From an uncultured virus (IMG/VR IMGVR_UViG_3300030102_006999) (lineage: Duplodnaviria > Heunggongvirae > Uroviricota > Caudoviricetes): 64,000 nucleotides of DNA. Numbering within the stretch: position 1 is the stretch's first letter; every line of letters begins with the position of its first letter. The notes under the pieces are model-generated. The model worked only from the letters and a program-made list of their open reading frames with translations, did no database searches and had not been told where the DNA came from. Where the stretch lies: IMG/VR virus record IMGVR_UViG_3300030102_006999; one strand, 5' to 3'. Of this stretch, positions 1,061 to 55,812 are shown one piece after another. A program made the position numbers and the translations under genes.

Positions 1061-4000
1061 ATGACAAAGATTCCATTCGTTGGGCTACACGCCCATTCGG
1101 TTGCTGGTTCAATTTTCGATGCACTTGGATATCCACAAGAGCATATGGACTTTGCCTATGAAAATGGCATGGATGCACTCGCACTTACAGACCACGGCAA
1201 CATGAATGGCTTGCCGCATCAAGTTCTGCATGCCAAGAAGATGAAAGAAGCGGGTAAAGAGTTCAAGCCTATCTTTGGTGTTGAAGCCTACTTTCTTCCG
1301 TCAATTGAGGACTGGAAGCAAGATTACGAAGATGCCAAGGCTGATAAGAAACGCAGCAAGACCCTAAGCAAAGACGTTACTGCCACAACAGTTGAGGATG
1401 AGGACGCATCCAAGAAGGCAGTTCGAAACATTCTTAACCGCCGCCGCCACCTTATTCTATTGGCACAAAACCAAGAAGGCCTTAACAACCTGTTCTCTCT
1501 TATCTCCGAATCTTTTGGTCCCGGTAATTATTACCGATATCCGCGAGTAGACTATCGTTTGCTAAAAAAGTATTCTGACGGCGTTATAGCGGCCTCTGCT
1601 TGTCTGGGTGGTGTCTACGCTGGTAACTACTGGGAAAACCGCGAGAACGGCGACGAGGCTGTCTTAAACGCCATGCGTGAAACTACAAAACAAATGGTTG
1701 ATATCTTTGGTGATCGATGGTACGGCGAGCTTCAATGGAACAATGTTCCGGAACAACATATCTTAAACAAATTCATCATTAAGATGCATGAAGAGTTTGA
1801 TATCGGCTTGATTTCCACATCAGACTCACACTATCCAAACCCTACGGCTTGGAAGGATCGAGAGCTATACAAGCGCCTTGGCTGGCTGGGCAAATCAAAG
1901 CCAGCATATGAGAGTTCTGAAATTCCTGACGGTGTTGAGGAGATCGGCTACGAGCTTTATCCTCGTAATGGGAATCAGATGTGGGATGCTTACAAAAAGT
2001 ATTCTACCGAGTGTGGAGTGGAATACGATGACGACTTGGTAATGAAGTCTATTACGAATACTCATCATATTGCACACAATCGGATTGCGAACTTCTTGCC
2101 GGACAACTCCGTACAATTGCCGGACTTTGTTATTCCTGCTGGAGAGACAGCCGACTCTGCTTTGGAAAAGTTCTGTATCGAAGGCTTACGCCTGAAGGGG
2201 CTGCATACGAACTCTGAATACACAGAGCGTCTACGAATGGAGTTGACTGTAATTTCAGACCGAGGTTTCTCTAAGTATTTCTTGACAATGAATGAAATCA
2301 GTAAGAAAGCTAACGAAGTCATGCTTACTGGTCCCGGTCGAGGCTCTGCAGCGGGCTCATTGGTGGCTTACGCCTTAGATATTACTCAGGTTGATCCGCT
2401 CAAGTATGGTCTTCAGTTCTCTCGATTCCTTCGCGCCGATGCCACTGACTATCCTGATATTGACTACGATGTAGCCGACAGCATGGAATTGAAAGAGATG
2501 CTTATTTCGGAATGGGGTGAAGATAAGGTTGCTCCTATTTCGAACTGGAATACTTTACAGTTAAAGTCTTTGATTAAAGACATCTCAAAGTTCTATGGCA
2601 TTGAGTTCCGCGAGGTCAATGAGGTCACCAGTGTTATGATGACCGAAGCTATTGGTCCCGCCAAGAAGAAACACGGCATCAAGACTGGAGTCTATACTCC
2701 CACTTTTGAAGAGGTTATGGAGTTCAGTTCGACTCTACAATCTTTCTTACAGCGATATCCAGAAGTCAAAACACACGTTGAAACTTTGTATGGCCAAGTT
2801 CGTTCATGTTCTCGTCACGCTGGTGGTGTTGTTATTGGAGAAAACCTTAATCAACGTATGCCTTTAATTAACTCTGGTGGCGTACGTCAGACTCCATGGT
2901 CAGAAGGTCAGAACGTTCGACACTTAGAGCCTATGGGCTTTATTAAGTTTGATGTCTTGGGCCTATCAACACTCAAGATGATCGAGGGTGCCATTCGACA
3001 TATCTTAGTTCGACACCACAATATCCCGGAGCCAACTTTTGAGGATATTCAAGCTTTCTACAATAAGAACTTACATCCAGACGTAATTGATTTCGATGAT
3101 CAAGAAGTTTATAAGAACATTTTCCATGCAGGTAAGTGGGCCGGGGTGTTTCAATTTACCGAAACAGGCGCCCAGCGATTCTGCCAGCAAGTAAAGCCGA
3201 ATAACTTGATTGACCTTGCGGCTATTACCTCCATTTATCGCCCCGGCCCACTTGGTGCAGATGTGCACCTTGATTTTGTGGAGGCCAGAGAAAATCCACA
3301 ACGCTTGAAGTTTATCAATCAAGAGCATGAAGACGTGACTTCGGAAACATTTGGATTTCTTATTTTCCAAGAGCAGATTGCATTGTTGGCCCACAAGCTA
3401 GGCGAAGATATTTCTCTAGATGAAGGAAACATGCTTCGGAAAGTTCTAACTAAGAAAGGAACAGGTAAGGAAGCCAAGGTTAAAAACAAATTGCGAGCTA
3501 AATTTGTAAAGGGCTGCGTCAACAAAGGTCTCCGAAAAACAACTGGTGAGCGTTTGTGGGATACTTTTGAGTATTTCTCTGGCTATGGTTTCAATAAATC
3601 GCATGCTGTTTCTTATTGTATTATCTCATACCAGTGTGCTTGGTTACTTAACTATTATCAAGTCGAGTGGCTGGCAGCTTTCCTAGACAAAGAGCCAGAG
3701 TCTCGAAAAGAAAAGGCCATTAATGTTGCAAAGTCTTTCGGCCTTGGTATTAAAGGGTTAGATGTAAATTCTTCTGGTCGAGTTTGGGAAATCTCCAAAG
3801 ACGGATCAATGCTAATTCAGCCCTTATCTTCGATTAAGGGTTTGGGTGACGCTGCTATCGATCAGATTGTCAAACACCGACCTTTCAATCAAGTTGAAGA
3901 CTTCTTATTCAACGATGAAATTATATATTCTAAGCTGAATAAAAAGGCGCTAGATGTGTTATGTCGCTCTGGCGCAATGACAGCTTTGGAAGATAAAAGG

Positions 4001-4480
4001 TTTTCAGGCGGCAAGCACTTTTGGTCGGCAGTCTGCGTTGACCGCCCACGAAAACAAAAGAACCTAGATGAAAACATAGAAGCCTACAAGCCAGAAGGAG
4101 ATTTCTCCGACGAAGAGAAAATCAGTTATCAAGTAGAGTTAACGGGAGTGTTTCCATTCAATCGAGTGATGAAAGAAGATCTATACAAGCAATTGAATGA
4201 TAATCATATTCCAGCGATTGCAAACTATGATCCCCAACTATGTCAGGCAGTCTGGTTTATTCCACGTAATGTTGTCACAAAGAAAACCAAAAATGGTAAA
4301 CCTTATTGGATTCTTGAGGTGATCGACGATACAAACTCTTTGACAAAGATTCGTTGTTGGGGAATCCAAGAGTATGATAGGATTTACGTCAATCGTCCAT
4401 ATATGGCGAAGCTAGACTATAATGATAAGTGGGGCTTCTCGACACGAAGTCTTCGAAGAAATTTTAGGATTTTAGCTTGA
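1061..4480 (+). CDS. dnaE: DNA polymerase III alpha subunit (family C, DnaE)
   Basis: PHP motifs LHAHS/TDHG/GVEAY/SDSH; GPGRGSAAGSLV; PDIDYD; HAGGVV; KFDVLGL; GYGFNKSHA. Confidence 0.97.
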   Translation: MTKIPFVGLHAHSVAGSIFDALGYPQEHMDFAYENGMDALALTDHGNMNGLPHQVLHAKKMKEAGKEFKPIFGVEAYFLPSIEDWKQDYEDAKADKKRSKTLSKDVTATTVEDEDASKKAVRNILNRRRHLILLAQNQEGLNNLFSLISESFGPGNYYRYPRVDYRLLKKYSDGVIAASACLGGVYAGNYWENRENGDEAVLNAMRETTKQMVDIFGDRWYGELQWNNVPEQHILNKFIIKMHEEFDIGLISTSDSHYPNPTAWKDRELYKRLGWLGKSKPAYESSEIPDGVEEIGYELYPRNGNQMWDAYKKYSTECGVEYDDDLVMKSITNTHHIAHNRIANFLPDNSVQLPDFVIPAGETADSALEKFCIEGLRLKGLHTNSEYTERLRMELTVISDRGFSKYFLTMNEISKKANEVMLTGPGRGSAAGSLVAYALDITQVDPLKYGLQFSRFLRADATDYPDIDYDVADSMELKEMLISEWGEDKVAPISNWNTLQLKSLIKDISKFYGIEFREVNEVTSVMMTEAIGPAKKKHGIKTGVYTPTFEEVMEFSSTLQSFLQRYPEVKTHVETLYGQVRSCSRHAGGVVIGENLNQRMPLINSGGVRQTPWSEGQNVRHLEPMGFIKFDVLGLSTLKMIEGAIRHILVRHHNIPEPTFEDIQAFYNKNLHPDVIDFDDQEVYKNIFHAGKWAGVFQFTETGAQRFCQQVKPNNLIDLAAITSIYRPGPLGADVHLDFVEARENPQRLKFINQEHEDVTSETFGFLIFQEQIALLAHKLGEDISLDEGNMLRKVLTKKGTGKEAKVKNKLRAKFVKGCVNKGLRKTTGERLWDTFEYFSGYGFNKSHAVSYCIISYQCAWLLNYYQVEWLAAFLDKEPESRKEKAINVAKSFGLGIKGLDVNSSGRVWEISKDGSMLIQPLSSIKGLGDAAIDQIVKHRPFNQVEDFLFNDEIIYSKLNKKALDVLCRSGAMTALEDKRFSGGKHFWSAVCVDRPRKQKNLDENIEAYKPEGDFSDEEKISYQVELTGVFPFNRVMKEDLYKQLNDNHIPAIANYDPQLCQAVWFIPRNVVTKKTKNGKPYWILEVIDDTNSLTKIRCWGIQEYDRIYVNRPYMAKLDYNDKWGFSTRSLRRNFRILA

Positions 4481-4533: not shown

Positions 4534-5535
4534 ATGTTAAACGTTGATGTTATTATTGGCATCCAGCATGGAGATGAAGGTAAAGGAAAAGTTACACACT
4601 CATTATTAGAATCTGGAAAATATACACACTGTATACGATATAATGGTGGTTGCAATGCCGGTCACACAATATATCACAAAGGCACAAAGTTTGTAACACA
4701 TCATATCCCCGCCGGCGTATTTTTCGGAATCAAGAGTATCATTGGTCCCGGATGTGTCGTTGATGTTGATAAATTCAAAGAAGAGATCAAAATGCTCAAC
4801 GATGGGGGTATAAATACTGAAGGACTGGTATTTATCGCGGAGAATGCCCATATTATCACCGAGCGTCATCGCTGGAGTGACTCTGGAGAAATCAAGATTG
4901 GCACTACTCGAACAGGCAACGGCCCTTGTTATTCATCTAAGTACGCCAGAGAAGGATGGCCGGCCAACACCGTTAATGAGCTTGCGCCTTACCTGATCGA
5001 TATGTACGAAGAATTCTACTACAATCATCCTCAAGCAGAAGTACTGTGTGAGGGCGCGCAGGGTTTTGCACTAGACATTGATTGGGGCGACTATCCTTAT
5101 GTCACTAGTAGTCATTGTACTACAGCCGGCGCCTTACTAAATGGCTTCCCGCCTAGTTCGATTAGGAAAGTTTATGGCGTTGCCAAAGCTTACGAGACCT
5201 ATGTTGGGTCAAAAAAGTTTCAACCTAAAGGTCGAACTTTCGAAGTGATTCAGGAATTAGGAAAAGAGTTTGGTGCAACTACGGGCCGGCCCCGTCAATG
5301 TAACTGGGCAAATTTGGTTCATATGCAAAAGGCCTGTCGCATTAATGGAGTTACTGATTTAATTATTAATAAAGTTGATATTTTGGAGCAGGTCAATCGC
5401 TGGACAGTCTATGTCGGCTCTAAAGACGAAGCAAGCATGATGACATTCATGAATAAAGAGCAATTTTGCGACTACATTGAATACTACTTTGATGGCATTA
5501 AAGTTATTTTTTCTGGAAGTCCAGAGAGAATCTGA
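4534..5535 (+). CDS. purA: adenylosuccinate synthetase (short form)
   Basis: GIQHGDEGKGK, GGCNAGHT, EGAQG, YPYVTSS, EFGATTGRPR, NKVD. Confidence 0.92.
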   Translation: MLNVDVIIGIQHGDEGKGKVTHSLLESGKYTHCIRYNGGCNAGHTIYHKGTKFVTHHIPAGVFFGIKSIIGPGCVVDVDKFKEEIKMLNDGGINTEGLVFIAENAHIITERHRWSDSGEIKIGTTRTGNGPCYSSKYAREGWPANTVNELAPYLIDMYEEFYYNHPQAEVLCEGAQGFALDIDWGDYPYVTSSHCTTAGALLNGFPPSSIRKVYGVAKAYETYVGSKKFQPKGRTFEVIQELGKEFGATTGRPRQCNWANLVHMQKACRINGVTDLIINKVDILEQVNRWTVYVGSKDEASMMTFMNKEQFCDYIEYYFDGIKVIFSGSPERI

Positions 5536-7230: not shown

Positions 7231-7538
7231 TGAGTGGTTTTGAGATTTTTGAAAACGTAGTTGAAATTCATGCAGAAGAAAATGAAGTTGAGGCTACATC
7301 GAAAGAAGAAAAGATGGTTGAGTATGTTCGGAGCTTGAAGGCTCTTGAAGATGCTATGGAACCATACAAAGAACAAAAGCGAGAACTAAAGCAAGAGTTC
7401 AAAGAGCAAGGCTGGTTGACAGGAGATGAAATCTCCATGACAGTCAAAGCATATCGCATGATGAAATCAGAGAACTTTGACTTTGATGAGTTCACGAAGA
7501 TTTATGAATCTCTTGCTAAACTTACAGGACGTGCATAA
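7227..7538 (+). CDS. GapR/T4 DsbA-like dsDNA-binding protein
   Basis: Helical pattern YVRSLKALEDAM...KRELKQEFKEQG...KAYRMMK resembles the GapR/DUF2312 family. Confidence 0.5.
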   Translation: MMSGFEIFENVVEIHAEENEVEATSKEEKMVEYVRSLKALEDAMEPYKEQKRELKQEFKEQGWLTGDEISMTVKAYRMMKSENFDFDEFTKIYESLAKLTGRA

Positions 7539-8083
7539 TGATTTTGGAATATTATCGAACACGGCATGATGCTGTCCCGCCAACACGAGCAAATCCATCA
7601 GATGCTGGATTGGACGTACACTTTAATCCAGACGATGCATCAATCGAAGGAGTTAATCTTCAGCCGGGAGAAAGTAAACTATTTTCTACTGGATTAAAGT
7701 TTGGAATCCCTCATGGATACATGCTGGAAGTCAAGAACCGCAGTGGCAACGCATCGAAGCGAAGCCTTCTTGTAGGTGCATGCGTCGTTGATTCTGGGTA
7801 TGATGGAGAGGTGTTTGTAAATCTCCACAATGTTGGAACAGAGACGCAGTTCATTCCACGAGGAATGAAGATTGCTCAAGTGGTAATGGTGCCGGTTGTT
7901 CATTTTCGCGCTCTTGAAACTACAAGTGACAATCTTTATAACTGGTATCCAATTACTATGTCAGGCCGAGGCGCCGGCGCACTGGGTTCTACTGATAAAC
8001 TAAACAAAGCAACGCAGCATGTCGATCCATTTGACATGCCAAAGAGCCCCAGTCATTGGGAGTTAGGAGACCCACAAGGATGA
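7538..8083 (+). CDS. dut: trimeric dUTPase
   Basis: DAGLD, RSG, VVDSGYDGE, IAQ, RGAGALGST. Confidence 0.95.
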   Translation: MILEYYRTRHDAVPPTRANPSDAGLDVHFNPDDASIEGVNLQPGESKLFSTGLKFGIPHGYMLEVKNRSGNASKRSLLVGACVVDSGYDGEVFVNLHNVGTETQFIPRGMKIAQVVMVPVVHFRALETTSDNLYNWYPITMSGRGAGALGSTDKLNKATQHVDPFDMPKSPSHWELGDPQG

Positions 8084-9105
8084 AACTAGATAAGTGTTTG
8101 TCGTATGACGATGTTCTGCTTGTGCCACAATATTCGGACATCAAGACTAGAAAAGAAGTTGACCTGTCATCTAAGTTAGATGATAGCTTAACCTTCAGTC
8201 TACCTGTTATATCCTCTCCTATGGATACAGTTACCGAATCACACATGGCTGCTGCCATGTTTCGACACGGAGGTTTTGGCGTTGTTCATCGATACAACAC
8301 TATTGAAGAGCAAGTAAAACTTCTACAAACTTTAGACAAATTGGAGCCTTCCTCGATAAAAGCAGCCGCCGTTGGTATCAGCGGAGATTATTTCGAGCGC
8401 GCTTCAGAATTAGTAAATGCGGGCGCACAAATCTTGTGCTTAGATGTTGCCCATGGCCATCACGTTATGATGAAGTCAGCACTCAAGGCTCTCCGCCAAA
8501 ATTTTTCTGTGCACTTGATGGCTGGCAACGTAGCCACAAAAGAAGGTTTTGAAGACCTCGCCGCATGGGGAGCTAATTCTGTAAGATGTAATATCGGGGG
8601 AGGCTCCATTTGCTCCACTAGAGTCCAAACAGGACATGGCATGCCCGGCCTACAAACAATTCTTGATTGTGCTGATTCACCTTTGGCTCAAGATGTCAAA
8701 GTGATTGCCGATGGAGGTTTAAAGAGCAGTGGAGACATTGTTAAAGCCCTTGGCGCCGGCGCAGACTTTGTGATGGTTGGTTCGCTATTGGCAGGATCGA
8801 TTGAGACTCCGGGTAGAATTATTGTCACCAAGGATGGTAGCAGTCATAAAATCTATAGGGGAATGGCCAGCAAGTCTGCCCAAAACTCTTGGAGAAACAA
8901 GACGAGTTCTATTGAAGGGGTATCAACCACCGTACCATTTAAAGGACCAGTGGGAGATATACTAGAAGAGTTGGCAGTAGGTGTTCGTTCCGGATTATCT
9001 TACTCTGGCAGCCGCTCCATAACGGAGTTTCAATCAAAGGCTAAGTTTGTTATACAAACGTCTGCCGGCCAATTTGAGAGCGCCGCTCACATTTTAAGGA
9101 GGTAG
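8080..9105 (+). CDS. guaB: IMP dehydrogenase/GMP reductase family, CBS-less (GuaB-like)
   Basis: YDDVLLVP, SSPMDTVT, DVAHGH, GSICSTR (catalytic Cys), IADGG, YRGMAS; start at ATGA overlap with dut. Confidence 0.85.
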   Translation: MKLDKCLSYDDVLLVPQYSDIKTRKEVDLSSKLDDSLTFSLPVISSPMDTVTESHMAAAMFRHGGFGVVHRYNTIEEQVKLLQTLDKLEPSSIKAAAVGISGDYFERASELVNAGAQILCLDVAHGHHVMMKSALKALRQNFSVHLMAGNVATKEGFEDLAAWGANSVRCNIGGGSICSTRVQTGHGMPGLQTILDCADSPLAQDVKVIADGGLKSSGDIVKALGAGADFVMVGSLLAGSIETPGRIIVTKDGSSHKIYRGMASKSAQNSWRNKTSSIEGVSTTVPFKGPVGDILEELAVGVRSGLSYSGSRSITEFQSKAKFVIQTSAGQFESAAHILRR

Positions 9106-10675: not shown

Positions 10676-10996
10676 ATGAAAGCAGTAGCATGGAAAGAAA
10701 GAAAAACAAACAACAAACTAATGTACATCCTTCAAATTGACGGGATTAAGGGGGTTAGAAGTGAAAATAGGGTCACAAAAGATCTGTCAGGATGGCAAGC
10801 ATATGCCGAAGGGTACGATGCTGTAAATAAAGCCAAGACAATTATATTTAAAAACTATTTCGACACGGAAGACGATTGGAAGAAATGGGCTAGAGAGTTT
10901 CCTTACTCGCTAACAGAGATCGGCAAGAGCGGAAAGGAAAAGCCTTATAAACTGGGTCTTGACTATATTAATTCACCCCGAAGGAGAGCATCGTAA
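10676..10996 (+). CDS. hypothetical protein
   Basis: GGAG RBS; coupled to clpP (TAATG). Confidence 0.7.
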   Translation: MKAVAWKERKTNNKLMYILQIDGIKGVRSENRVTKDLSGWQAYAEGYDAVNKAKTIIFKNYFDTEDDWKKWAREFPYSLTEIGKSGKEKPYKLGLDYINSPRRRAS

Positions 10997-11595
10997 TGTC
11001 TAAAGAAAATCAAACAGAAGAAAATCAAACAGAAGAAAATCAAACAGAAGGGTTGGGGCAAGAAGATCTATTACAAAAAATACCCCAAGAGCCTAGAGCA
11101 ATTGGAATCTTTCAAGACATTGACGAGAAAAAGGCAGAAGAACTTATATACGCTCTCACTTTATACGCGGCAGATAATAAAGATCCGGTAGAGTTTTACA
11201 TTTCCACCAATGGCGGATCTGCAACTGACATGTTTGCTGTATATGATTATGTTCGCACTCTGCGAGATGATATAGATATTTGCACTTATGGTCTTGGGAA
11301 AGTAATGTCTGCTGGCGTTTTGCTTTTAGCGTGCGGTACGCCGGGAAAGAGAAAGATTGGTAAATATTGCAGAGTTATGATTCATTCTGTTATTGGCTTA
11401 AACTCAGGCGCCCTACACGACTTAGAAAATGAAATGCAGGAAATACACAAGATTCAAGAAATATATATTGAGGCTCTGTGTGCAGAAACTAAATTTACAA
11501 AAAAGAAACTAAAAGATTTGATTTCAAAGAATGTCAATGTTTATTTATCGGCAGAGGAGGCAGTAAGTTACGGTATTGCTGACATTATAGTCTAG
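10996..11595 (+). CDS. clpP: ClpP-family protease subunit
   Basis: YISTNGGS, GKVMSAG (Ser), RVMIH (His), YLSAEEAVSYGIAD; the catalytic Asp position reads Asn. Confidence 0.88.
   Translation: MSKENQTEENQTEENQTEGLGQEDLLQKIPQEPRAIGIFQDIDEKKAEELIYALTLYAADNKDPVEFYISTNGGSATDMFAVYDYVRTLRDDIDICTYGLGKVMSAGVLLLACGTPGKRKIGKYCRVMIHSVIGLNSGALHDLENEMQEIHKIQEIYIEALCAETKFTKKKLKDLISKNVNVYLSAEEAVSYGIADIIV
11005..11049 (+). repeat. 3x15-bp tandem repeat (ENQTE x3) at the ClpP N-terminus
   Basis: GAAAATCAAACAGAA x3. Confidence 0.9.
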
Positions 11596-14001: not shown

Positions 14002-15573
14002 TTGACAAAGCATTATGATTCTGGTTCTAGCATGAATCAAAAGATTTTATCTGGTGTTAATATTCTTGCGGATAATGTAGCATCTACACTAGGCCCTCGC
14101 GGCCGAAACGTGATCCTGCAAGAGAAAGGTAAACGACCTATTATCACTAAGGACGGAGTAACTGTGGCGGAGTTTGTGGATCTTGAAGATCCATTCGAGA
14201 ACGCCGGAGTTCAGATTATTAAACAAGCAGCAGCACAAACTAATCTCGATGCTGGTGATGGAACAACAACTTCCACAGTATTATCTCGCGCCATCTTAAA
14301 CGAGGCTCAAAAGTATATTTCATCCGGTATCCCACCAATTGAACTTCAGCGAGGCATTGAACTAGCCGTTGATGCAATCACTGAAGAGCTAAAGTCAGTC
14401 GCTCGCCCTGTGATGTCCGAAGAGGATATCAGCCACGTAGCAACCATTTCAGCTAATAACGACAAGACCATTGGATTCTTGATTGGCAAGGCCGTCGCAG
14501 CCGCTGGCAAGGATGGTGCAATTACTGTAGAAGAAGCTCGGTCTATGAAAACAAGTCTTGACCTAGTAGAAGGTTTCCGAATGGATGCTGGCTATGCTGC
14601 TTCTGCTTTTATCACCGACGAGCGCCGGCGCGCCGCAACTTATGATGACCCTCTCTTGCTTGTGACGGATGAGAAGATCGACCGCGTTCAAGATATTATG
14701 CACATCTTAGAACTTGCTGCTAGAGAGTCTCGCCCTCTTATCTTTATTGCAACAGAGATTGAAGGTCAAGCATTGGCCGCTATGATTATGAACGCTATCA
14801 AAGGAACTCTAAAAGTAGCAGCTATCAAGGCTCCACGATACGGCGAAGAGCGTAAGAATATCTTGCAAGACTTGGCAACTTCCACTGGAGCGACTTTTAT
14901 CTCTCGCTCTCAAGGTAAGAAGCTCCAAGACGTAAAACTCGTTGACTTGGGAACTTCAGACCGAATTGATATCACCCGATACCAAACTACGATTGTTGGA
15001 GGTAACGGAGATCAAGACGAGATCGAAGTACGATTAGACAACCTGCGAGAAGATTTAACTAGAGAAGATAATCTAAACGAGTGTGAAAAGATTCAAGACC
15101 GAATCGCACGTTTGTCTAGCGGTATCGCAATCATTCGCGTAGGTGCCTCAACTGAAGTAGAAATGATTGAAAAGAAGCACAGGATCGAAGATGCCCTTGA
15201 AGCAGTGAAGTCGGCACAATTAGAAGGCATCGTACCCGGTGGTGGCTGTGCTCTCTTGTCAGCAGTAAGAGTGTTAGATAATGTTTCTTGTCCAAATAGC
15301 GACCAAGTATTGGGTGTAGAGATTATCAGGCAAGCAGCCTCGGCACCTCTTCGTCAGATGGCAATCAACGCCGGCGAATCTCCAGATATTATTTGTGCCA
15401 AAGTATGTGAAACTGATTCCGATACAGGATATGATTTTGTAACAGGACAAGTAGTTAACATGTGGGATAAAGGTATCCTTGACCCCGTTAAAGTTACTCG
15501 CACAGCTTTGCAGAACGCTGCTTCTGTTTCTGGCACATTATTAACTACAAATTGTGCAGTCATTCAAAAGTGA
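14002..15573 (+). CDS. groEL: chaperonin GroEL (TTG start)
   Basis: TLGPRGRNV, ITKDGVTVA, AGDGTTT, RIEDAL, GIVPGGG, ILDPVKV; GAGGTG RBS. Confidence 0.96.
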   Translation: MTKHYDSGSSMNQKILSGVNILADNVASTLGPRGRNVILQEKGKRPIITKDGVTVAEFVDLEDPFENAGVQIIKQAAAQTNLDAGDGTTTSTVLSRAILNEAQKYISSGIPPIELQRGIELAVDAITEELKSVARPVMSEEDISHVATISANNDKTIGFLIGKAVAAAGKDGAITVEEARSMKTSLDLVEGFRMDAGYAASAFITDERRRAATYDDPLLLVTDEKIDRVQDIMHILELAARESRPLIFIATEIEGQALAAMIMNAIKGTLKVAAIKAPRYGEERKNILQDLATSTGATFISRSQGKKLQDVKLVDLGTSDRIDITRYQTTIVGGNGDQDEIEVRLDNLREDLTREDNLNECEKIQDRIARLSSGIAIIRVGASTEVEMIEKKHRIEDALEAVKSAQLEGIVPGGGCALLSAVRVLDNVSCPNSDQVLGVEIIRQAASAPLRQMAINAGESPDIICAKVCETDSDTGYDFVTGQVVNMWDKGILDPVKVTRTALQNAASVSGTLLTTNCAVIQK

Positions 15574-44683: not shown

Positions 44684-45160
44684 ATGAAGTTCACATTAGA
44701 CCAAATTAAGACGATTATTGCTGAAGAAGTAGCAAATGTAACCAAAGAAGCGTATGGAGACGAAGATCCAAACTTACGCATGGGATATGCAAACAAGGGA
44801 CGCTATGAAGACCCCGAAGACACTCAACGACGATGGGATGACAATGCTGATTTGCCTCCCAAAGAAAGATCTGGTGGATCTGAAGTTGGTGGTGAATCAA
44901 AGGCTAGACCTTTAGCTGACACTATTGAACATTTCTTTCGTAAAGCGCTAAAAGACGAAGATTTCGTTGCTGCTGACTTTGACGTAATGAACTCAAAGCA
45001 TTATTCTCAACTAAAAAGTGCTGTTAAAGATGAAAATGACGAAAACCGAGCGCACTTAATGGCTGCATTTGAGGCTAACGGAACAAATAAAAACGACATT
45101 CTCATGTTTTTGGACTGGGTTGGTAGAGGATACGGCCTTCCTATGTCGTTTACAAAGTAA
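44684..45160 (+). CDS. putative virion-internal protein
   Basis: MKFTLDQIKTIIAEE; ACTAATTA at 44648. Confidence 0.6.
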   Translation: MKFTLDQIKTIIAEEVANVTKEAYGDEDPNLRMGYANKGRYEDPEDTQRRWDDNADLPPKERSGGSEVGGESKARPLADTIEHFFRKALKDEDFVAADFDVMNSKHYSQLKSAVKDENDENRAHLMAAFEANGTNKNDILMFLDWVGRGYGLPMSFTK

Positions 45161-45578: not shown

Positions 45579-45851
45579 ATGAAACTCACAAAAGAGTCAC
45601 TAATCAAGTTAATCAAGGAAAGCTGGGAAGAAATGTTGTCTGCCCAAGCCCAAATTGATGCTGAAAGTGACTCTGGTGATGAAGAAATCCTTGAAAGAAT
45701 ATTCGATTTAGCTCAAGATATGAGCACACAACTCACCGCTATGCAAAATAAGCCCGGACAAGCAGCAATTATGGCTAAAGTTAACGGAATACTTGATATT
45801 ATTCAAGAGATGATGCTTGAACAAGAAGAAAATGAAAGAGAAAACCGATAA
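45579..45851 (+). CDS. putative virion-internal protein
   Basis: MKLTKESLIKLIKES. Confidence 0.6.
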   Translation: MKLTKESLIKLIKESWEEMLSAQAQIDAESDSGDEEILERIFDLAQDMSTQLTAMQNKPGQAAIMAKVNGILDIIQEMMLEQEENERENR

Positions 45852-45902: not shown

Positions 45903-46370
45903 ATGAGGGCATTCTTTTTATTCCTATTAACAATACCGTTGGTCTGCTTTCTGGTTTGCTGTAAAGACGAGGGCCCAACTGGCTATAAAGCTGGTGTTAC
46001 GGGCCCCGATGACAGTTATATTGTAGAAACTTGTAAAGAAGAAGAATTTTTGCAAAAATGGTGGAGCATTGAGACTGATAATGTCATTGCAAACACCCTT
46101 GTTCCTTCTTATAAAGATTATTGCACCTATATTGACGAGAGTCTGGTGTTCTTTTGGCACCTTGAAGAGCAATATGGTTACTATAACTACGATTTTTACT
46201 GGAAGTGTGCCAACGAAAACACAATGTATATCACAAATGAGTCAACTGGTGATGAAATTGAGATGAGAATATATGGCCAAACCGCGCCGGGCTGCTATGA
46301 TGTTAAAATTACCTACGGTGTAAACATTATTAACGCAGATCTTTGCAGCTGTGAGTACAACGGACCATAA
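45903..46370 (+). CDS. Cys-containing putative lipoprotein
   Basis: Hydrophobic signal ending LVCC. Confidence 0.6.
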   Translation: MRAFFLFLLTIPLVCFLVCCKDEGPTGYKAGVTGPDDSYIVETCKEEEFLQKWWSIETDNVIANTLVPSYKDYCTYIDESLVFFWHLEEQYGYYNYDFYWKCANENTMYITNESTGDEIEMRIYGQTAPGCYDVKITYGVNIINADLCSCEYNGP

Positions 46371-46430
46371 ACTTTTGATTTTATCATTAAAATAGACTAT
46401 TTATGTTATATGCATATGGAGTACTTTGCT

Positions 46431-47174
46431 ATGAAAGTTCTAAAAAACAAAAGAAGAATCGATCCAAGATATCATTTGGACGAAAAAAGAGAGCATTCAG
46501 CTCAAAAATCTAACTCTGAAATCGCAGAAGAGATTCAAAAGTCCTTTAGTGGACAGTTTTCCTTTGATTCTTGGCTTAATGAGTCAGATAAAGATTGTAA
46601 ACCCGACTATCCTGATTTAGATAAAGATGGAGACGAGGATGAGTGCATCTCTGATGCTGCAAAAGATGCAGAAAAAGTTGATGAAATTGTAGGACCTCAA
46701 GGCCCAGAGCCAAGATTATCTATGATGATAGACGATGAAGAAGAGTTTCCCGGAGGAACAATCGCCGATATGCCGGCTGAAGTTCCAGAAAGTCCTTGCG
46801 CTGCAAAAGAAAAAGGCTCTTTTGAAGTTGCTTCTAGGTTTGGCATACTTACAACCCCTGACAAATCAGCAGATTCTCTCAAAGCAGCCTCTAACTTTGC
46901 GATGCACTTACTGCATAACATGGGCTTAAGTCCAGAAGAGGTCCAAATGAGTCCAGAAATTTCTGCAGTCGTTACCGAATCTGATACTCCAGAGAGTGTT
47001 GAAGAAGAGTTGGAGACTGCTTCAAGCGATCCTCGTACTGTCGCCCTTAATGCCGCTTTAAAAGTATCGTATAATACAGACCTCGATCCAGAAGAAGCAG
47101 CGGCTGATATATTAACAGTGGTTGAGGAATTCCTGTCTAAAAAGCTCGGTATGCCCATAGAATTGAGATATTAG
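46431..47174 (+). CDS. acidic hypothetical protein with DxDxDG motif (putative virion)
   Basis: PDYPDLDKDGDEDE; ACTATTTA at 46396. Confidence 0.6.
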   Translation: MKVLKNKRRIDPRYHLDEKREHSAQKSNSEIAEEIQKSFSGQFSFDSWLNESDKDCKPDYPDLDKDGDEDECISDAAKDAEKVDEIVGPQGPEPRLSMMIDDEEEFPGGTIADMPAEVPESPCAAKEKGSFEVASRFGILTTPDKSADSLKAASNFAMHLLHNMGLSPEEVQMSPEISAVVTESDTPESVEEELETASSDPRTVALNAALKVSYNTDLDPEEAAADILTVVEEFLSKKLGMPIELRY

Positions 47175-47331
47175 TATGAAAAAGGTTGAAAGAAGAGAGA
47201 CGATCAGTCTAATCGTTAATTATCATGGTTTTCGCATTTATTGACATTCTTACACTGCCACAACTTATATTTGTAGCGTTTATTATGTTTATTTTAATAT
47301 CTATTTGCCTCTGGAATGACAGGGATTTATA

Positions 47332-47556
47332 ATGGACAATAATCAATTAATAAAAGACATATTAGAAGCCATTAAAGTCAATGTTGAAGCATACGAAGAG
47401 AATGAGAAATCAATACTTAAATGGTTAAATGCTTATAAAAAATCAAAAAACATCAGAATAGACTTAGAATTTCAAAAAAGAGTATTAGAAGAAGCTATCG
47501 AAGCATTAAAATATAGGGAAAGATTTCCAAATGACGCTAAGAATCGTGAAGAATGA
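47332..47556 (+). CDS. hypothetical protein
   Basis: ORF track; packing. Confidence 0.55.
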   Translation: MDNNQLIKDILEAIKVNVEAYEENEKSILKWLNAYKKSKNIRIDLEFQKRVLEEAIEALKYRERFPNDAKNREE

Positions 47557-47695
47557 TGAGGTTCCAGAACCGGAACCAGAAAAAATTAAAATTCCTATAA
47601 AAGATTACTTGACTTTTGCTGTATCTAGTGTTATAATGTTAGTATTCTTTGTTGCTCTATTGTGGCTAGCTCTATCAATGAATGGTTATTTATAA
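47531..47695 (+). CDS. small membrane protein, 54 aa (not in ORF track)
   Basis: ...DYLTFAVSSVIMLVFFVALLWLALSMNGYL*. Confidence 0.5.
   Translation: MTLRIVKNDEVPEPEPEKIKIPIKDYLTFAVSSVIMLVFFVALLWLALSMNGYL
47609..47637 (+). promoter_or_regulatory. sigma70-type promoter upstream of the Cys-rich peptide and tmRNA
   Basis: TTGACT-17-TATAAT. Confidence 0.7.
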
Positions 47696-47753
47696 TTACT
47701 TAACTGTTAAGTTATGAAGAGACTATCTATTTCATCATCAAAGGAGACTTATC

Positions 47754-47828
47754 ATGAAATTTACTGAAGAAACATGTAAGTGTTGCGATTGCTGCGAATG
47801 TGATTGTGACAAGTGTAAGTGCTGTTAA
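47754..47828 (+). CDS. metallothionein-like 24-aa peptide with 10 Cys (not in ORF track)
   Basis: AAGGAG RBS; MKFTEETCKCCDCCECDCDKCKCC*. Confidence 0.65.
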   Translation: MKFTEETCKCCDCCECDCDKCKCC

Positions 47829-47836
47829 ACTTACCG

Positions 47837-48180
<344 letters not shown>

Positions 48181-48219
48181 TTTATTTTGTTTTAGTCAAA
48201 AAGCAAACTATTTATACAC

Positions 48220-49521
48220 ATGAGCATAAAAGTATTTATAAAAGCAAAAAAACAAATTAAAAAGTTAATTTGCCCACCGGCAACCCAAGATTTAGAACTT
48301 AACACAAAAAATAGAAATTCTGCAATTAAATCTGAACATATTCAGTATGGTCCACTAAACTTAAACGACGAATCTTACTGGGTCAGGGTAGCAGAACACT
48401 GGAAGACAACTCCAGAAGTAGCTAAGGAATCAAATTGTTCTAATTGTGCAGCTTTTGACATCTCTCCTAGAATGGAAGAATGTATGCCCGGATCTTTACA
48501 GGAAGATGGTAGGCTAGGTTATTGTTGGATGCATCACTTCAAATGCCACTCTGCTCGTACTTGCTATACTTGGGCAGCAGGTGGACCAATCAATAAGGAT
48601 GCTGTTTCAGCTGAATGGCAGGAGAGAAACATGAAAAACTTACAAGAATCTGAAGATAGAATTAGAAAACTCGAAGACATGGTTATAGATGCCGCCTTGA
48701 AAGGAAGACATAATCCCACTGCTATAGGCGAACTAACGAAAATGTCCAAGAGAGGCCAATATGATATGGAAAGACTAAAGAAAAAAGTTAAAGATGCGAA
48801 AAAATCTAAAACTAATGAAGAATTGGAATCCGTCATTGACGAGAAAAAGAAAAAAAGAAAAAAGAAGAAATCTAAAAAGAAAAAAGGTGACCGCTGTACA
48901 AGGATAGCTAAGAGAAAATATGATGTTTGGCCTTCAGCTTACGCTTCTGGGGCCGTCGTCCGATGTCGACAGGGTAAAATTTGGAAAGGTCTAAGTGAAC
49001 AAGAGTTCGATTCAATCGTAGCTGAAGTTGTCGCTGAAACTCTTGAAGAAGCCCTAGTACAAAAAATAACCAAAGCTTTAAAAGATGAAGGTGGCGCTGC
49101 AGGTATGAAAGCTCTCATGGATCATACTAAAGCCAAAAAAGCGGAAATTGAAAAAGCGATTAAAAACACAGAAAAGTTTGTAAAGCACACCAATGGCGAT
49201 ATCATTCTAAAAGATAAAAGTTTGGACGAAAAAAAAAAGAAAAAGTCTAAAAAGAAAAAAGCTGGTACCGAATCTAGCAAAGAGTCGTCTTTGAGAGATT
49301 GGTTTGGCAGAAAAGGCGCAAAAGGTAAAAAAGGTGGATGGGTAGACTGCAACACTTGTCGTAAAGACAAGAAAACTGGTCGTAAGACTTGTAAGTCTTG
49401 TGGCCGGCAAAAAGGTGAAAAAAGATCTAAATATCCATCTTGCAGACCTACGCCGGGAGCTTGCGGAGAAAAGGGTAGAGGAAAAAGCTGGGGCAAAAAA
49501 TCAGCTAAAGGAAAAAAATAA
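48220..49521 (+). CDS. Lys-rich multidomain Cys-containing protein (putative virion)
   Basis: CSNC..CWMHHFKC, WPSAYASGAVVRCR, SLRDWF..WVDC; ATG 5 nt after ACTATTTA. Confidence 0.65.
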   Translation: MSIKVFIKAKKQIKKLICPPATQDLELNTKNRNSAIKSEHIQYGPLNLNDESYWVRVAEHWKTTPEVAKESNCSNCAAFDISPRMEECMPGSLQEDGRLGYCWMHHFKCHSARTCYTWAAGGPINKDAVSAEWQERNMKNLQESEDRIRKLEDMVIDAALKGRHNPTAIGELTKMSKRGQYDMERLKKKVKDAKKSKTNEELESVIDEKKKKRKKKKSKKKKGDRCTRIAKRKYDVWPSAYASGAVVRCRQGKIWKGLSEQEFDSIVAEVVAETLEEALVQKITKALKDEGGAAGMKALMDHTKAKKAEIEKAIKNTEKFVKHTNGDIILKDKSLDEKKKKKSKKKKAGTESSKESSLRDWFGRKGAKGKKGGWVDCNTCRKDKKTGRKTCKSCGRQKGEKRSKYPSCRPTPGACGEKGRGKSWGKKSAKGKK

Positions 49522-49937
49522 TGTTATTAACTAAAAAATATCTTGTTGAACTCATTAGGGAACAAGTTGAAGATTTAACTCTTGAATATACTTCCCATAC
49601 ACATATTTCTATTGGTGACGCAACATTTGACGATGGAACTATTGCCGAAGACCTTGGATTCTGGGACGATGATTTAATGGAAGCGTATTATCAGGGACGT
49701 AAAGTTACCTTAAATAAACCAACTCGCGGGGATGTTAAGAAATTTAAAGTTTATGTTAACTCTGGTAAGAAAGATAGTAAAGGTAGAATCAAGGCTAAAA
49801 AAGTAAACTTTGGCGATAAAAATATGAAAATTAAAAAATCCAACCCGAAAAGAAGAAAATCTTTTAGAGCCAGACACAACTGTGATAATCCGGGACCAAA
49901 AACGAAAGCACGTTACTGGTCTTGTAAAAAGTGGTAA
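49521..49937 (+). CDS. basic phage protein (putative virion)
   Basis: MLLTKKYLVELIRE; KKVNFGD..RRKSFRARHNC..ARYWSC. Confidence 0.7.
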   Translation: MLLTKKYLVELIREQVEDLTLEYTSHTHISIGDATFDDGTIAEDLGFWDDDLMEAYYQGRKVTLNKPTRGDVKKFKVYVNSGKKDSKGRIKAKKVNFGDKNMKIKKSNPKRRKSFRARHNCDNPGPKTKARYWSCKKW

Positions 49938-50451: not shown

Positions 50452-50802
50452 ATGAAAGTATTTGTATATGGAACATTAAGAAAAGACGAATATAATCACA
50501 TATTTGTAGAAAACAGCAAGTTCATAAAAAATACCTACACAAAACCAGAGTGGATTTTTTATGATTTAGGAGGCTTTCCAGCTGCGTGTCCCAATGGCTC
50601 GACTGCCATATTTGGCGAAGTTTATGAAGTTGACCAAGATACTTTAGACAGGCTAGATGTTTTAGAGTCTCACCCAGAATTTTATGTTCGCAAAACTATC
50701 ACTTTAGAAGATGATGAAAAAGTATTTGCTTATATTTTAAGGGATGCACACTGCAGTGGTTGTAGAGTTATTGAATCCGGAGATTGGAAAAATAAAAAAT
50801 AG
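50452..50802 (+). CDS. gamma-glutamylcyclotransferase (GGCT/AIG2-like)
   Basis: VFVYGTLR, GEVYEV, LDVLE..Y.R. Confidence 0.9.
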   Translation: MKVFVYGTLRKDEYNHIFVENSKFIKNTYTKPEWIFYDLGGFPAACPNGSTAIFGEVYEVDQDTLDRLDVLESHPEFYVRKTITLEDDEKVFAYILRDAHCSGCRVIESGDWKNKK

Positions 50803-54365: not shown

Positions 54366-54441
54366 GGGGGTGTAGCTCAACTGGGAGAGCGTCAGATTTG
54401 CATTCTGAAGGTCGCAGGTTCGATCCCTGTCACCTCCACCA
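54366..54441 (+). tRNA. tRNA-Ala(UGC), CCA encoded
   Basis: GGGGGTG/CACCTCC acceptor with G3:U70; TCAGA-TTTGCAT-TCTGA anticodon arm; GGTTCGATCCC T-arm; 76 nt. Confidence 0.97.
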
Positions 54442-55179: not shown

Positions 55180-55239
55180 GAAAAAAAACATTTTTATAAT
55201 ATTTTATTGATAGTTATTATAGACGGAGGTGTTTATGAA

Positions 55240-55812
55240 ATGAAAACACAAAGAATATTAAGATTTTTAGCAATATTTGCTATTACATGGCTTGTTTTGA
55301 CGTGGCTGATGGGGTGTTCCGGGTGTCTTTCGAATATTGATCAGTCGATTGATAAAGATGGCTGTGAAAATTCTCTTGGTAATGTGGCATGCAACTTTGC
55401 TATGATGAACCAAGACGGCACAACAGAAAGATTATATGATCACTACGGAAAGATAATTATTTTAGATTTTAGTGCAATGTGGTGCGGCCCTTGCCAGCTA
55501 GCTGGGCTAGATGCTGATGGGCTTGTTGAGAAATATGGTGAAGAAAACGTTGTTTATATCACGGTCCTTATCGAAAATTCAAGTGGTCACGACCCTAGGT
55601 TAAGAGACTTACAAACTTGGTCTGAAGGTTTGGGTATTCATAATAATCCAGTTTTAGGTACTAACAGAGAATGGCTGCGTGATAGTGGGTATTTTTTAGA
55701 AGCATGGCCTACTTTTTATGTTATTACTCCGACTATGGTGGTCAAAGAGTATCAAAGAGGCTATAGGAAGCATGATTTGGAAGATGCTATTGAGAATTTA
55801 TTAAATGAATGA
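55240..55812 (+). CDS. TlpA/redoxin-family thiol-disulfide oxidoreductase, putative lipoprotein
   Basis: DFSAMWCGPC, cis-Pro WPT, signal LMGC. Confidence 0.85.
   Translation: MKTQRILRFLAIFAITWLVLTWLMGCSGCLSNIDQSIDKDGCENSLGNVACNFAMMNQDGTTERLYDHYGKIIILDFSAMWCGPCQLAGLDADGLVEKYGEENVVYITVLIENSSGHDPRLRDLQTWSEGLGIHNNPVLGTNREWLRDSGYFLEAWPTFYVITPTMVVKEYQRGYRKHDLEDAIENLLNE

Follow-up and report, generated by a model that had tools for sequence, protein, structure and literature searches.

A polycysteine micro-gene directly upstream of a phage tmRNA

A 64,000-nucleotide (nt) stretch of DNA from an uncultured virus of the Caudoviricetes (IMG/VR record IMGVR_UViG_3300030102_006999; this whole stretch is called the window below) carries a very short open reading frame (ORF) directly upstream of a gene for transfer-messenger RNA (tmRNA, ssrA). 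This ORF, referred to here as the polycysteine micro-gene, translates as MKFTEETCKCCDCCECDCDKCKCC – a peptide of 24 amino acids (aa), 10 of which (42%) are cysteines. An earlier note, made by a model from the letters of the DNA alone, had read it as a very small metallothionein-like peptide that lies 8 nt ahead of the tmRNA and is co-expressed with it. The size, cysteine count and position given in that note were borne out by the sequence, by ARAGORN and by Rfam. The locus contains the following features.

47531-47695, plus strand: 54-aa ORF for a small hydrophobic protein, with a homologue of 39 aa in contig G001
47609-47637, plus strand: sigma-70-type promoter-like site (TTGACT, 17-nt spacer with a TG extension, TATAAT)
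47741-47746, plus strand: Shine-Dalgarno (SD) site AAGGAG, 7 nt 5' of the micro-gene ATG
47754-47828, plus strand: polycysteine micro-gene (ATG at 47754, 24 codons, TAA at 47826-47828)
47829-47836, plus strand: 8-nt spacer from the micro-gene stop to tmRNA nucleotide 1, with an RNase P cut expected at its end
47837-48178, plus strand: one-piece tmRNA (ssrA) called by ARAGORN, with the tag ANNNNQFKQIALAA
48179-48193, plus strand: T-rich run directly 3' of the tmRNA CCA, read from the sequence

The 10 cysteine codons of the micro-gene fall within 17 codons and form the core C-x-C-C-x-C-C-x-C-x-C-x-x-C-x-C-C. The sole aromatic residue of the peptide, Phe3, lies N-terminal to this core. Because the cysteine codons mix TGT and TGC, the ORF is no simple repeat. 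The AAGGAG ribosome-binding site proposed in the earlier note is present at a distance of 7 nt from the ATG. As a control for chance, the window and 80 related loci (654,746 nt) were surveyed for ORFs of 12-80 aa that have six or more cysteines and a cysteine content of 25% or higher. Four were observed, and order-2 Markov simulations of the same 654,746 nt yielded none in each of 10 runs. On sequence grounds, the window ORF is a real gene and not a chance ORF.

The spacer between the ORF and the tmRNA measures 8 nt, since the TAA ends at 47828 and the tmRNA starts at 47837. The tmRNA matched Rfam RF00023 with 123.6 bits (E 1.4e-48; threshold 47 bits) over model positions 1-374, and it thus combines the two hallmarks of a tmRNA – a full-length RF00023 match and a tag reading frame. 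Its tag ends in ALAA. It is 86% identical to the tmRNA of G001, an IMG/VR contig of 193,157 nt (CheckV 100% complete) that is the closest relative of the window we found. A gene for a 433-aa protein without a Pfam family comes after the window tmRNA.

The promoter-like site at 47609-47637 matches the consensus at 11 of 12 positions and is the top of 15 sites in 46000-49000, so that the consensus promoter named in the earlier note stands as a near-consensus sequence. Its -10 element ends 116 nt ahead of the micro-gene ATG, and we found no terminator-like site on the plus strand between the promoter-like site (47637) and the tmRNA (47837). The promoter-like site is located within the 54-aa ORF at 47531-47695, whose product probably spans the membrane, as judged solely from a hydrophobic stretch. 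A similar hydrophobic ORF, of 51 aa, stands 5' of the polycysteine ORF in a second phage contig, G003, and small hydrophobic ORFs flank the polycysteine ORF in both the window and G003. On the other side of the tmRNA, the T-rich run at 48179-48193 is a possible end of the transcription unit, and the consensus terminator scan made no terminator call there. T runs likewise lie 3' of the tmRNA in the relatives G003, G008 and G010.

RNA libraries, analysed as assembled contigs, contain the ORF and the tmRNA on one contig. This contig, from metatranscriptome run X17, is 485 nt long (depth 5.7) and spans 47750-48053, covering the entire ORF and 217 nt of the tmRNA. Its ORF differs from that of the window by a single synonymous substitution, 47780 G>A, which turns AAG into AAA; the tmRNA portion next to it (217 nt) has 12 changes, and spacer base 47836 is absent. 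The part of the contig 5' of 47750 is unrelated sequence that ends in TATAAT-like and AGGAGG-like motifs. We read X17 as a related phage variant in which the same ORF-tmRNA block is placed behind a different upstream region. Two other RNA runs, X14 and X16, have contigs on the tmRNA only (47917-48167 and 47917-48067) and are uninformative on the ORF. The strong promoter-like site, the lack of a terminator before the tmRNA and the bridging X17 contig support the claim of the earlier note that the ORF lies in the leader of the tmRNA precursor.

Polycysteine ORFs of marine phages and bacteria and their recurrence ahead of tmRNA

We identified at least 32 SD-led polycysteine ORFs of 13-35 aa with 7-13 cysteines in contigs of uncultured marine phages, the window included. 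Three came from 80 IMG/VR loci around homologues of the 433-aa protein; these SD-led ORFs (23-35 aa, 9-13 cysteines) are intergenic and lie on the coding strand. Two degenerate DNA pattern scans of IMG/VR viral contigs, which returned at least 119 and at least 117 stretches, added at least 22 further ORFs, which are 13-25 aa long and share the core C-x-C-C-x-C-C-x-C-x-C(C); most of them have a clear SD site. TGY simple repeats and off-frame runs (130 and 84 frames) were set aside by eye, and the 22 scan-derived ORFs were chosen by eye for an SD site, hydrophilic character and short length. With a stricter pattern, a complete search through 185,579 species genomes returned 42 stretches, of which 11 are such ORFs: three in SAR86, six in Porticoccaceae/Cellvibrionales, one in Oligoflexia and one in Woesearchaeota. 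Taken as predicted genes, the polycysteine ORFs are a widespread, unannotated family of marine phages and marine bacteria.

The family is detectable via DNA pattern scans only. The earlier note had expected gene callers to overlook such ORFs, and this proved correct – a practical reminder that ORFs of fewer than 30 codons drop out of protein databases. Profile and structure resources gave no matches. Ten family peptides had none in Pfam at E<=10, a search in which HMMER composition filters may suppress matches, and none in PHROGs at E<=10. The window peptide had no match among PDB sequences at E<=10, and a tblastn search of GenBank phages with it, run under the low-complexity filter and hence weak, gave none at E<=10. 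An ESM Atlas search with a 31-aa family member as the query gave no usable match.

Composition and codon changes both bear on whether the peptide matters. Across the 32 phage ORFs, cysteine is encoded by TGT 166 times and by TGC 112 times. Only 2 of 177 non-cysteine core residues are L, I, V, F, M, W or Y, and K, E, T, D, N, G and S prevail; 44 of the 177 positions were set to K, N, D or E by the search pattern, so that 2 of 133 free positions are hydrophobic. Six close ORF pairs differ by a sum of 14 synonymous and nine non-synonymous codon changes, and alignment of homologous polycysteine ORFs gave indel lengths that are multiples of three. The near-absence of hydrophobic residues from the cores and the frame-keeping indels point to selection on the peptide itself. 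Frame and cysteines, whose conservation the earlier note had made its touchstone, are both retained: relatives keep the cysteines, and their indels stay in frame. Extra conserved parts mark some subtypes – an N-terminal amphipathic stretch in the peptides of loci L031, L459 and L461, and a C-terminal tail in those of Porticoccaceae. At IMG/VR locus L336, a 42-aa ORF consists of a predicted membrane helix fused to a polycysteine tail.

Most polycysteine ORFs stand ahead of protein genes. Among the matches listed, 20 of the 22 scan-derived ORFs precede ordinary protein genes, and the distance to the next gene at non-tmRNA loci is mostly -8 to 12 nt. The genes 3' of the ORF at 22 non-tmRNA loci comprise one for IscU, three cytidylyltransferase-like genes, one for a PD-(D/E)XK nuclease and one with a sub-threshold DUF3721 match; the remaining 16 have no Pfam family. 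At four Porticoccaceae/Cellvibrionales loci (L500, L507, L514 and L520), a GC-rich hairpin with a T run, as seen by eye, lies ~25 nt past the end of an ORF of 22-25 aa; the ORF at these loci could be a small gene standing by itself, or else an attenuator of the classical kind.

The order seen in the window, with the ORF directly before a tmRNA, recurs. The tmRNA 5' end comes immediately after the ORF at two of the 22 scan-derived loci, L372 and L444 (among the matches listed). We also scanned all IMG/VR viral contigs for two cysteine codons 3-20 nt ahead of the tmRNA 5' motif. This complete scan returned 18 stretches, eight of which are polycysteine ORFs (18-31 aa) that end just ahead of an ARAGORN tmRNA; RF00023 checks were run on three of these records as well. 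The search for cysteine-conserving homologues beside phage ssrA that the earlier note had suggested was thus successful, with eight further contigs. All eight ORFs have a GGAG/GGGGG-type SD site 5-9 nt ahead of the ATG, and their stop-to-tmRNA spacers are -1, 0, 2, 4, 5, 5, 5 and 6 nt (that of L471 from an alignment). In G002 the two overlap by one base: the G of the TAG that stops the ORF is also nucleotide 1 of the tmRNA.

The surroundings of these tmRNA-adjacent ORFs vary. Their 5' neighbours include genes for phosphomannomutase, a cupin, AhpC and an Ig-like protein as well as small hydrophobic ORFs, and their 3' neighbours include IscA-IscU, IscU with a PALP enzyme, an amidohydrolase and ORFs of unknown function. 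The PALP enzyme of the relatives is cysteine-synthase-like. Between G003, G010 and L471, DNA similarity begins at the SD site of the ORF and continues into the tmRNA, and the sequence further upstream is unalignable. The tmRNAs of G003 and G010 are 96% identical, whereas their peptides are clearly different.

The order is also absent from close relatives. In G001, the 39-aa homologue of the 54-aa ORF is followed by 13 nt and then the tmRNA; ~128 nt with the SD site and polycysteine ORF of the window are missing, and the promoter hexamers of the window are not conserved at the aligned place. We found no hydrophilic polycysteine ORF across the 193 kb of G001. A pattern for the 3' part of the tmRNAs of this phage group returned at least 120 stretches and at least 92 called tmRNAs. 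Among the matches listed, only two of the 69 tmRNAs with at least 130 nt of upstream sequence carry the ORF, both of them already known. Among the matches listed by a general tmRNA 5' motif scan (at least 119 stretches and at least 79 tmRNAs, mostly unrelated ones), none had an upstream polycysteine ORF. On a quick maximum-likelihood tree of 78 distinct tmRNAs, nine of which have the ORF, the trait requires at least six gains or losses, at least five of them forced by well-supported branches; shuffled labels gave a mean of 8.7 changes, and two of 500 shuffles were as low as observed. The tmRNAs of L581 and L592 are almost identical to that of G006, yet have no ORF. From the two in 69, the changes on the tree and the comparison of L581 and L592 with G006, it follows that the ORF-tmRNA order is a minority arrangement that has been repeatedly gained or lost.

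Random placement would put an ORF into that slot in about one of a few hundred cases, and we observed two of 22 and two of 69, at loci that are not independent. The ORF stands before a tmRNA more commonly than random placement would give, and its link to the tmRNA is genuine: it recurs, but it is not obligatory. The co-expression with the tmRNA that the earlier note had claimed accordingly stands in part: the promoter-like site, the lack of a terminator and the bridging RNA-library contig support it in the window, and the optional nature of the link, with 67 of the 69 tmRNAs lacking the ORF, sets its limit. We considered the closeness of stop codon and tmRNA as a special trait in its own right and rejected it, as the tmRNA of relatives that lack the ORF is preceded about as closely, at ~10-16 nt, by other genes.

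The tmRNAs themselves offered two side observations. Loci L529-L648 hold at least 92 one-piece tmRNAs, with tags of ANNN.. and ANDN.. types, in large marine phages. The gene directly 5' of the tmRNA differs even between near-identical tmRNAs, and because of this the tmRNA 5' flank looks like a recombination hot spot.

Candidate roles of the micro-gene

We favour the reading that the micro-gene encodes a metallothionein-like thiol peptide co-transcribed with the tmRNA, and hold it with confidence and doubt in about equal measure. Selection would keep a peptide made of a short hydrophilic N-terminus and a 17-residue core with 10 cysteines in CC/CxC arrangement, and this peptide would fold around metal ions or another thiol-bound cluster as a one-domain miniature metallothionein. 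The tmRNA precursor would carry the micro-gene in its 5' leader: RNA synthesis would begin at the promoter-like site (47609-47637), the AAGGAG site would direct ribosomes to the ORF for translation, and an RNase P cut 8 nt past the stop codon would release the tmRNA. Its recurrent and optional position before the tmRNA would be that of an accessory cassette on a strongly expressed RNA gene, and no requirement of tmRNA function.

Metallothioneins are operationally defined by a low molecular weight, a cysteine content of roughly 15-30% or more, motifs of the CC, CxC or CxxC type and few or no aromatic residues. The window peptide fits this definition in its size, its 42% cysteine and its CC/CxC core without aromatics. 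Among short single-domain forms, fungal Cu-thioneins have ~25 residues and seven cysteines, and the beta domains of animal metallothioneins have nine cysteines. The window peptide resembles these in its length of 24 aa, its cysteine content and motifs, and its hydrophilic or small inter-cysteine residues; it differs in being denser in cysteines and CC pairs, in being encoded by phages and bacteria, and in having no Pfam profile match. With SmtA/BmtA it shares the proposed role of a small, cysteine-rich, metal-binding protein of prokaryotes. SmtA-type proteins, however, are about twice as long, use histidine as well as cysteine and have a zinc-finger-like fold, and the window peptide has no profile match to them.

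Support for a functional peptide comes from the hydrophilic cores, the cysteine spacing conserved across phages and bacteria, the extra conserved parts of the subtypes, the membrane-helix fusion at L336 and the heterogeneity of the downstream genes. Several points weigh on the other side. Comparison with curated metallothionein profiles was negative (0 of 10 peptides in Pfam and none among PDB sequences, E<=10), and because Pfam, PHROGs and PDB sequences gave no match, membership of a known metallothionein family is unsupported; of the label chosen in the earlier note, the size, the cysteine content and the motifs stand, and the profile match does not. The hydrophilic-residue result was partly shaped by the search pattern and by the choice of the 22 members by eye. 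The different peptides of G003 and G010 beside 96% identical tmRNAs fit a looser constraint than that of a defined fold. The X17 contig has a depth of 5.7, and DNA carry-over into the RNA library is possible. Lastly, a simple metal-binding role leaves the recurrent placement before tmRNA and near IscU unexplained. If the peptides do bind metals, phages of the ocean and bacteria that rank among the most abundant in the sea (SAR86, Porticoccaceae) would carry metal or thiol ligands that are invisible to annotation, with possible consequences for how trace metals and sulfur are handled in the course of an infection.

The ORF could instead be a leader that senses Cys-tRNA. Its cysteine codons would then be the functional part, and pausing ribosomes would alter the RNA downstream – the folding and RNase P maturation of the tmRNA in the window, and the translation of IscU or other genes in relatives. 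We consider this the strongest of the alternatives, yet unlikely. Its model is the mycobacterial 'Cys ribulon', in which, according to the accessible text of Canestrari et al. (bioRxiv 10.1101/834739), leaderless polycysteine short ORFs are cysteine-responsive attenuators that work via ribosome stalling. Like those described there, the window ORF is tiny, dense in cysteine codons and directly 5' of another gene, and the likeness extends at L399 (2551-3280) to the next gene, as the ORF lies 8 nt ahead of IscU, a cysteine-dependent function. The spacing fits as well, with the ORF ending -1 to 8 nt ahead of the tmRNA at nine loci and mostly -8 to 12 nt ahead of other genes. Given the size of the ribosome footprint, a ribosome at the micro-gene stop codon would cover the first tmRNA bases. 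IscA-IscU (G002), IscU with the PALP enzyme (G007) and IscU (G008) follow the tmRNA within 2 kb, and the peptides turn over fast while cysteine richness and position stay. As far as the accessible text describes the mycobacterial ORFs, however, the window ORF departs from them: it is SD-led and ~116 nt past its promoter-like site, hence not leaderless; an RNA gene lies downstream, with no duplex that sequesters a ribosome-binding site; it heads no cysteine or sulfur operon (the tmRNA is followed by the 433-aa protein); the non-cysteine residues of the family are constrained; and the ORF is optional among close relatives. The 67 of 69 group tmRNAs without the ORF (among the matches listed), including L581 and L592 beside the near-identical G006, count against a sensing leader, and so does G001, which lacks the ORF although it is the closest relative of the window. 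The make-up of a classical leader-peptide attenuator was not found, as there is no terminator-like site in 47637-47837 and a spacer of 8 nt is too short for a terminator or antiterminator. In minimum-free-energy folds of eight loci, the tmRNA 5' bases pair with the ORF in G003, G006, G007, G009 and G010 but not in the window, and the folds share no common structure and no consistent ORF-tmRNA pairing. Most downstream genes are unrelated to sulfur, and a role for the codons only leaves the near-absence of hydrophobic residues unexplained. As a separate candidate, the ORF of G002 as a leader of IscA-IscU was rejected, since a promoter of its own with 12 of 12 consensus matches lies between the tmRNA and IscA. 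A tighter coupling, in which ORF and tmRNA form a working unit whose translation and tmRNA maturation act on each other, seems very unlikely to us. A ribosome at the end of the ORF would shield the RNase P site together with the first bases of the acceptor stem; a pause on the cysteine codons (from low Cys-tRNA, sulfur shortage or tRNA damage) would free the tmRNA 5' end for faster maturation, and the phage would gain ribosome-rescue capacity exactly when translation is in trouble. Where the cut leader mRNA ends at or inside the stop codon, as in G002, the peptide might itself become a tagged substrate. If true, gating of a tmRNA by a protein-coding leader would become known here for the first time.

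A thiol peptide need not bind metals in the manner of a metallothionein. It could carry iron, an Fe-S cluster or persulfide together with IscU/IscA, buffer redox state, or be the precursor of a modified peptide – roles other than storage that we judge unlikely. IscU or IscA genes lie within 2 kb at four of the 31 non-window phage loci (G002, G007, G008 and L399), G003, G008, G009 and G010 have a gene for glutaredoxin, thioredoxin or AhpC no more than 2.5 kb away, and the window has AhpC and gamma-glutamyl cyclotransferase genes within 8 kb. These redox-gene neighbours are raw counts, and any enrichment is putative; the window itself contains no Isc gene, and no maturase-type gene (radical SAM, cyclodehydratase) adjoins any locus whose neighbours were annotated. 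That the ORF serves as a built-in substrate of trans-translation, with RNase P leaving a leader mRNA that ends 0-8 nt past the stop and a peptide that can be tagged, appears highly improbable. The spacer of -1 to 8 nt at nine of nine loci agrees with it, as do the cut in G002, which would leave an mRNA without a stop codon, and a phage that encodes ClpP alongside a tag ending in ALAA. The spacing, however, reflects general packing, since relatives without the ORF have protein genes equally near the tmRNA; the stop codon is intact at eight of nine loci, and release factors should win at intact stop codons; and most family members are not beside a tmRNA. We give almost no credence to the idea that the ORF arose by chance and is untranslated, or that the leader acts at the RNA level only. 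The absence of the ORF from G001 would suit either, but the simulations gave none in each of 10 runs, all nine tmRNA-adjacent copies have an SD site, the indels are in frame, and family members turn up in many settings unrelated to one another as well as in bacteria.

The nearest parallel for a shared transcript is the OM43 phage Melnitz, for which the accessible text of Buchholz et al. (PMC9004378) reports a glutamine riboswitch with a two-piece tmRNA that is placed right after an early promoter, and gives 2.3% as the share of phage genomes that carry a tmRNA. Both are marine phage tmRNAs that share a transcript with another functional element – a protein-coding ORF with a one-piece tmRNA in the window, and a riboswitch with a permuted two-piece tmRNA in Melnitz. 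The accessible account of Melnitz (PMC9004378) mentions no upstream ORF, and the term cysteine is absent from it. In the literature that our searches covered in part, with subscription journals outside their coverage, we found no description of phage polycysteine ORFs and none of a tmRNA precursor with a coding leader. The arrangement, in which one precursor would comprise both an mRNA and a tmRNA and 0-8 nt would separate a stop codon from the RNase P site, occurs naturally and suits the study of interference between translation and stable-RNA processing.

The window phage and its genomic context

Because marine metagenome runs carry 47300-48500 and no close cultured phage was found, we take the window to come from an uncultured marine phage. 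Five such runs, from four studies, contain at least half of the sampled words of 47300-48500. The DNA polymerase of the window has an identity of 30% at most with those of cultured phages, and a search of GenBank phages for DNA relatives of 47300-48600 found none except 34-37-nt matches to the tmRNA T-arm. The 254-aa protein upstream has no relatives among IMG/VR viral contigs. G001 is syntenic with the window, with ORF identities of 26-91% at the amino-acid level.

Every long ORF of the window is on the plus strand, and its genes include those for a DnaE-type DNA polymerase, a PurZ-like adenylosuccinate synthetase, GroEL, ClpP, UvdE and AhpC. The PurZ-like gene (4534-5535) matches phrog_1211 (E 4.6e-68) and PF00709. 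Near it, at 1061-4480, 7538-8083 and 8056-9105, lie genes for the DnaE-type polymerase, a dUTPase/dCTP-deaminase-like protein and an enzyme of the GMP reductase/IMPDH type. From its gene content, the phage may make 2-aminoadenine (Z) DNA.

The ClpP and GroEL genes (10996-11595 and 14002-15573) stand in the same genome as a tmRNA tag that ends in ALAA, and the phage may itself supply some components of a ribosome-rescue and proteolysis chain; we did not find SmpB in the window. Within 8 kb downstream of the tmRNA lie genes for a gamma-glutamyl cyclotransferase (50452-50802), an AhpC-type peroxiredoxin (55207-55812) and tRNA-Ala(TGC) (54366-54441).

We also observed an N-terminal motif, MK-L/I/F-T-K..L..II.E, that is common to otherwise unrelated ORFs of the window (44684-45160, 45579-45848 and 49521-49937). 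The ORFs may hence be paralogues of one family or have an N-terminal signal in common. The relatives G002, G003 and G008 have a similar motif in the variant MKLIMENWRKF, and at three further loci (L058, L079 and L343) a gene with this N-terminal motif lies directly 3' of the polycysteine ORF.

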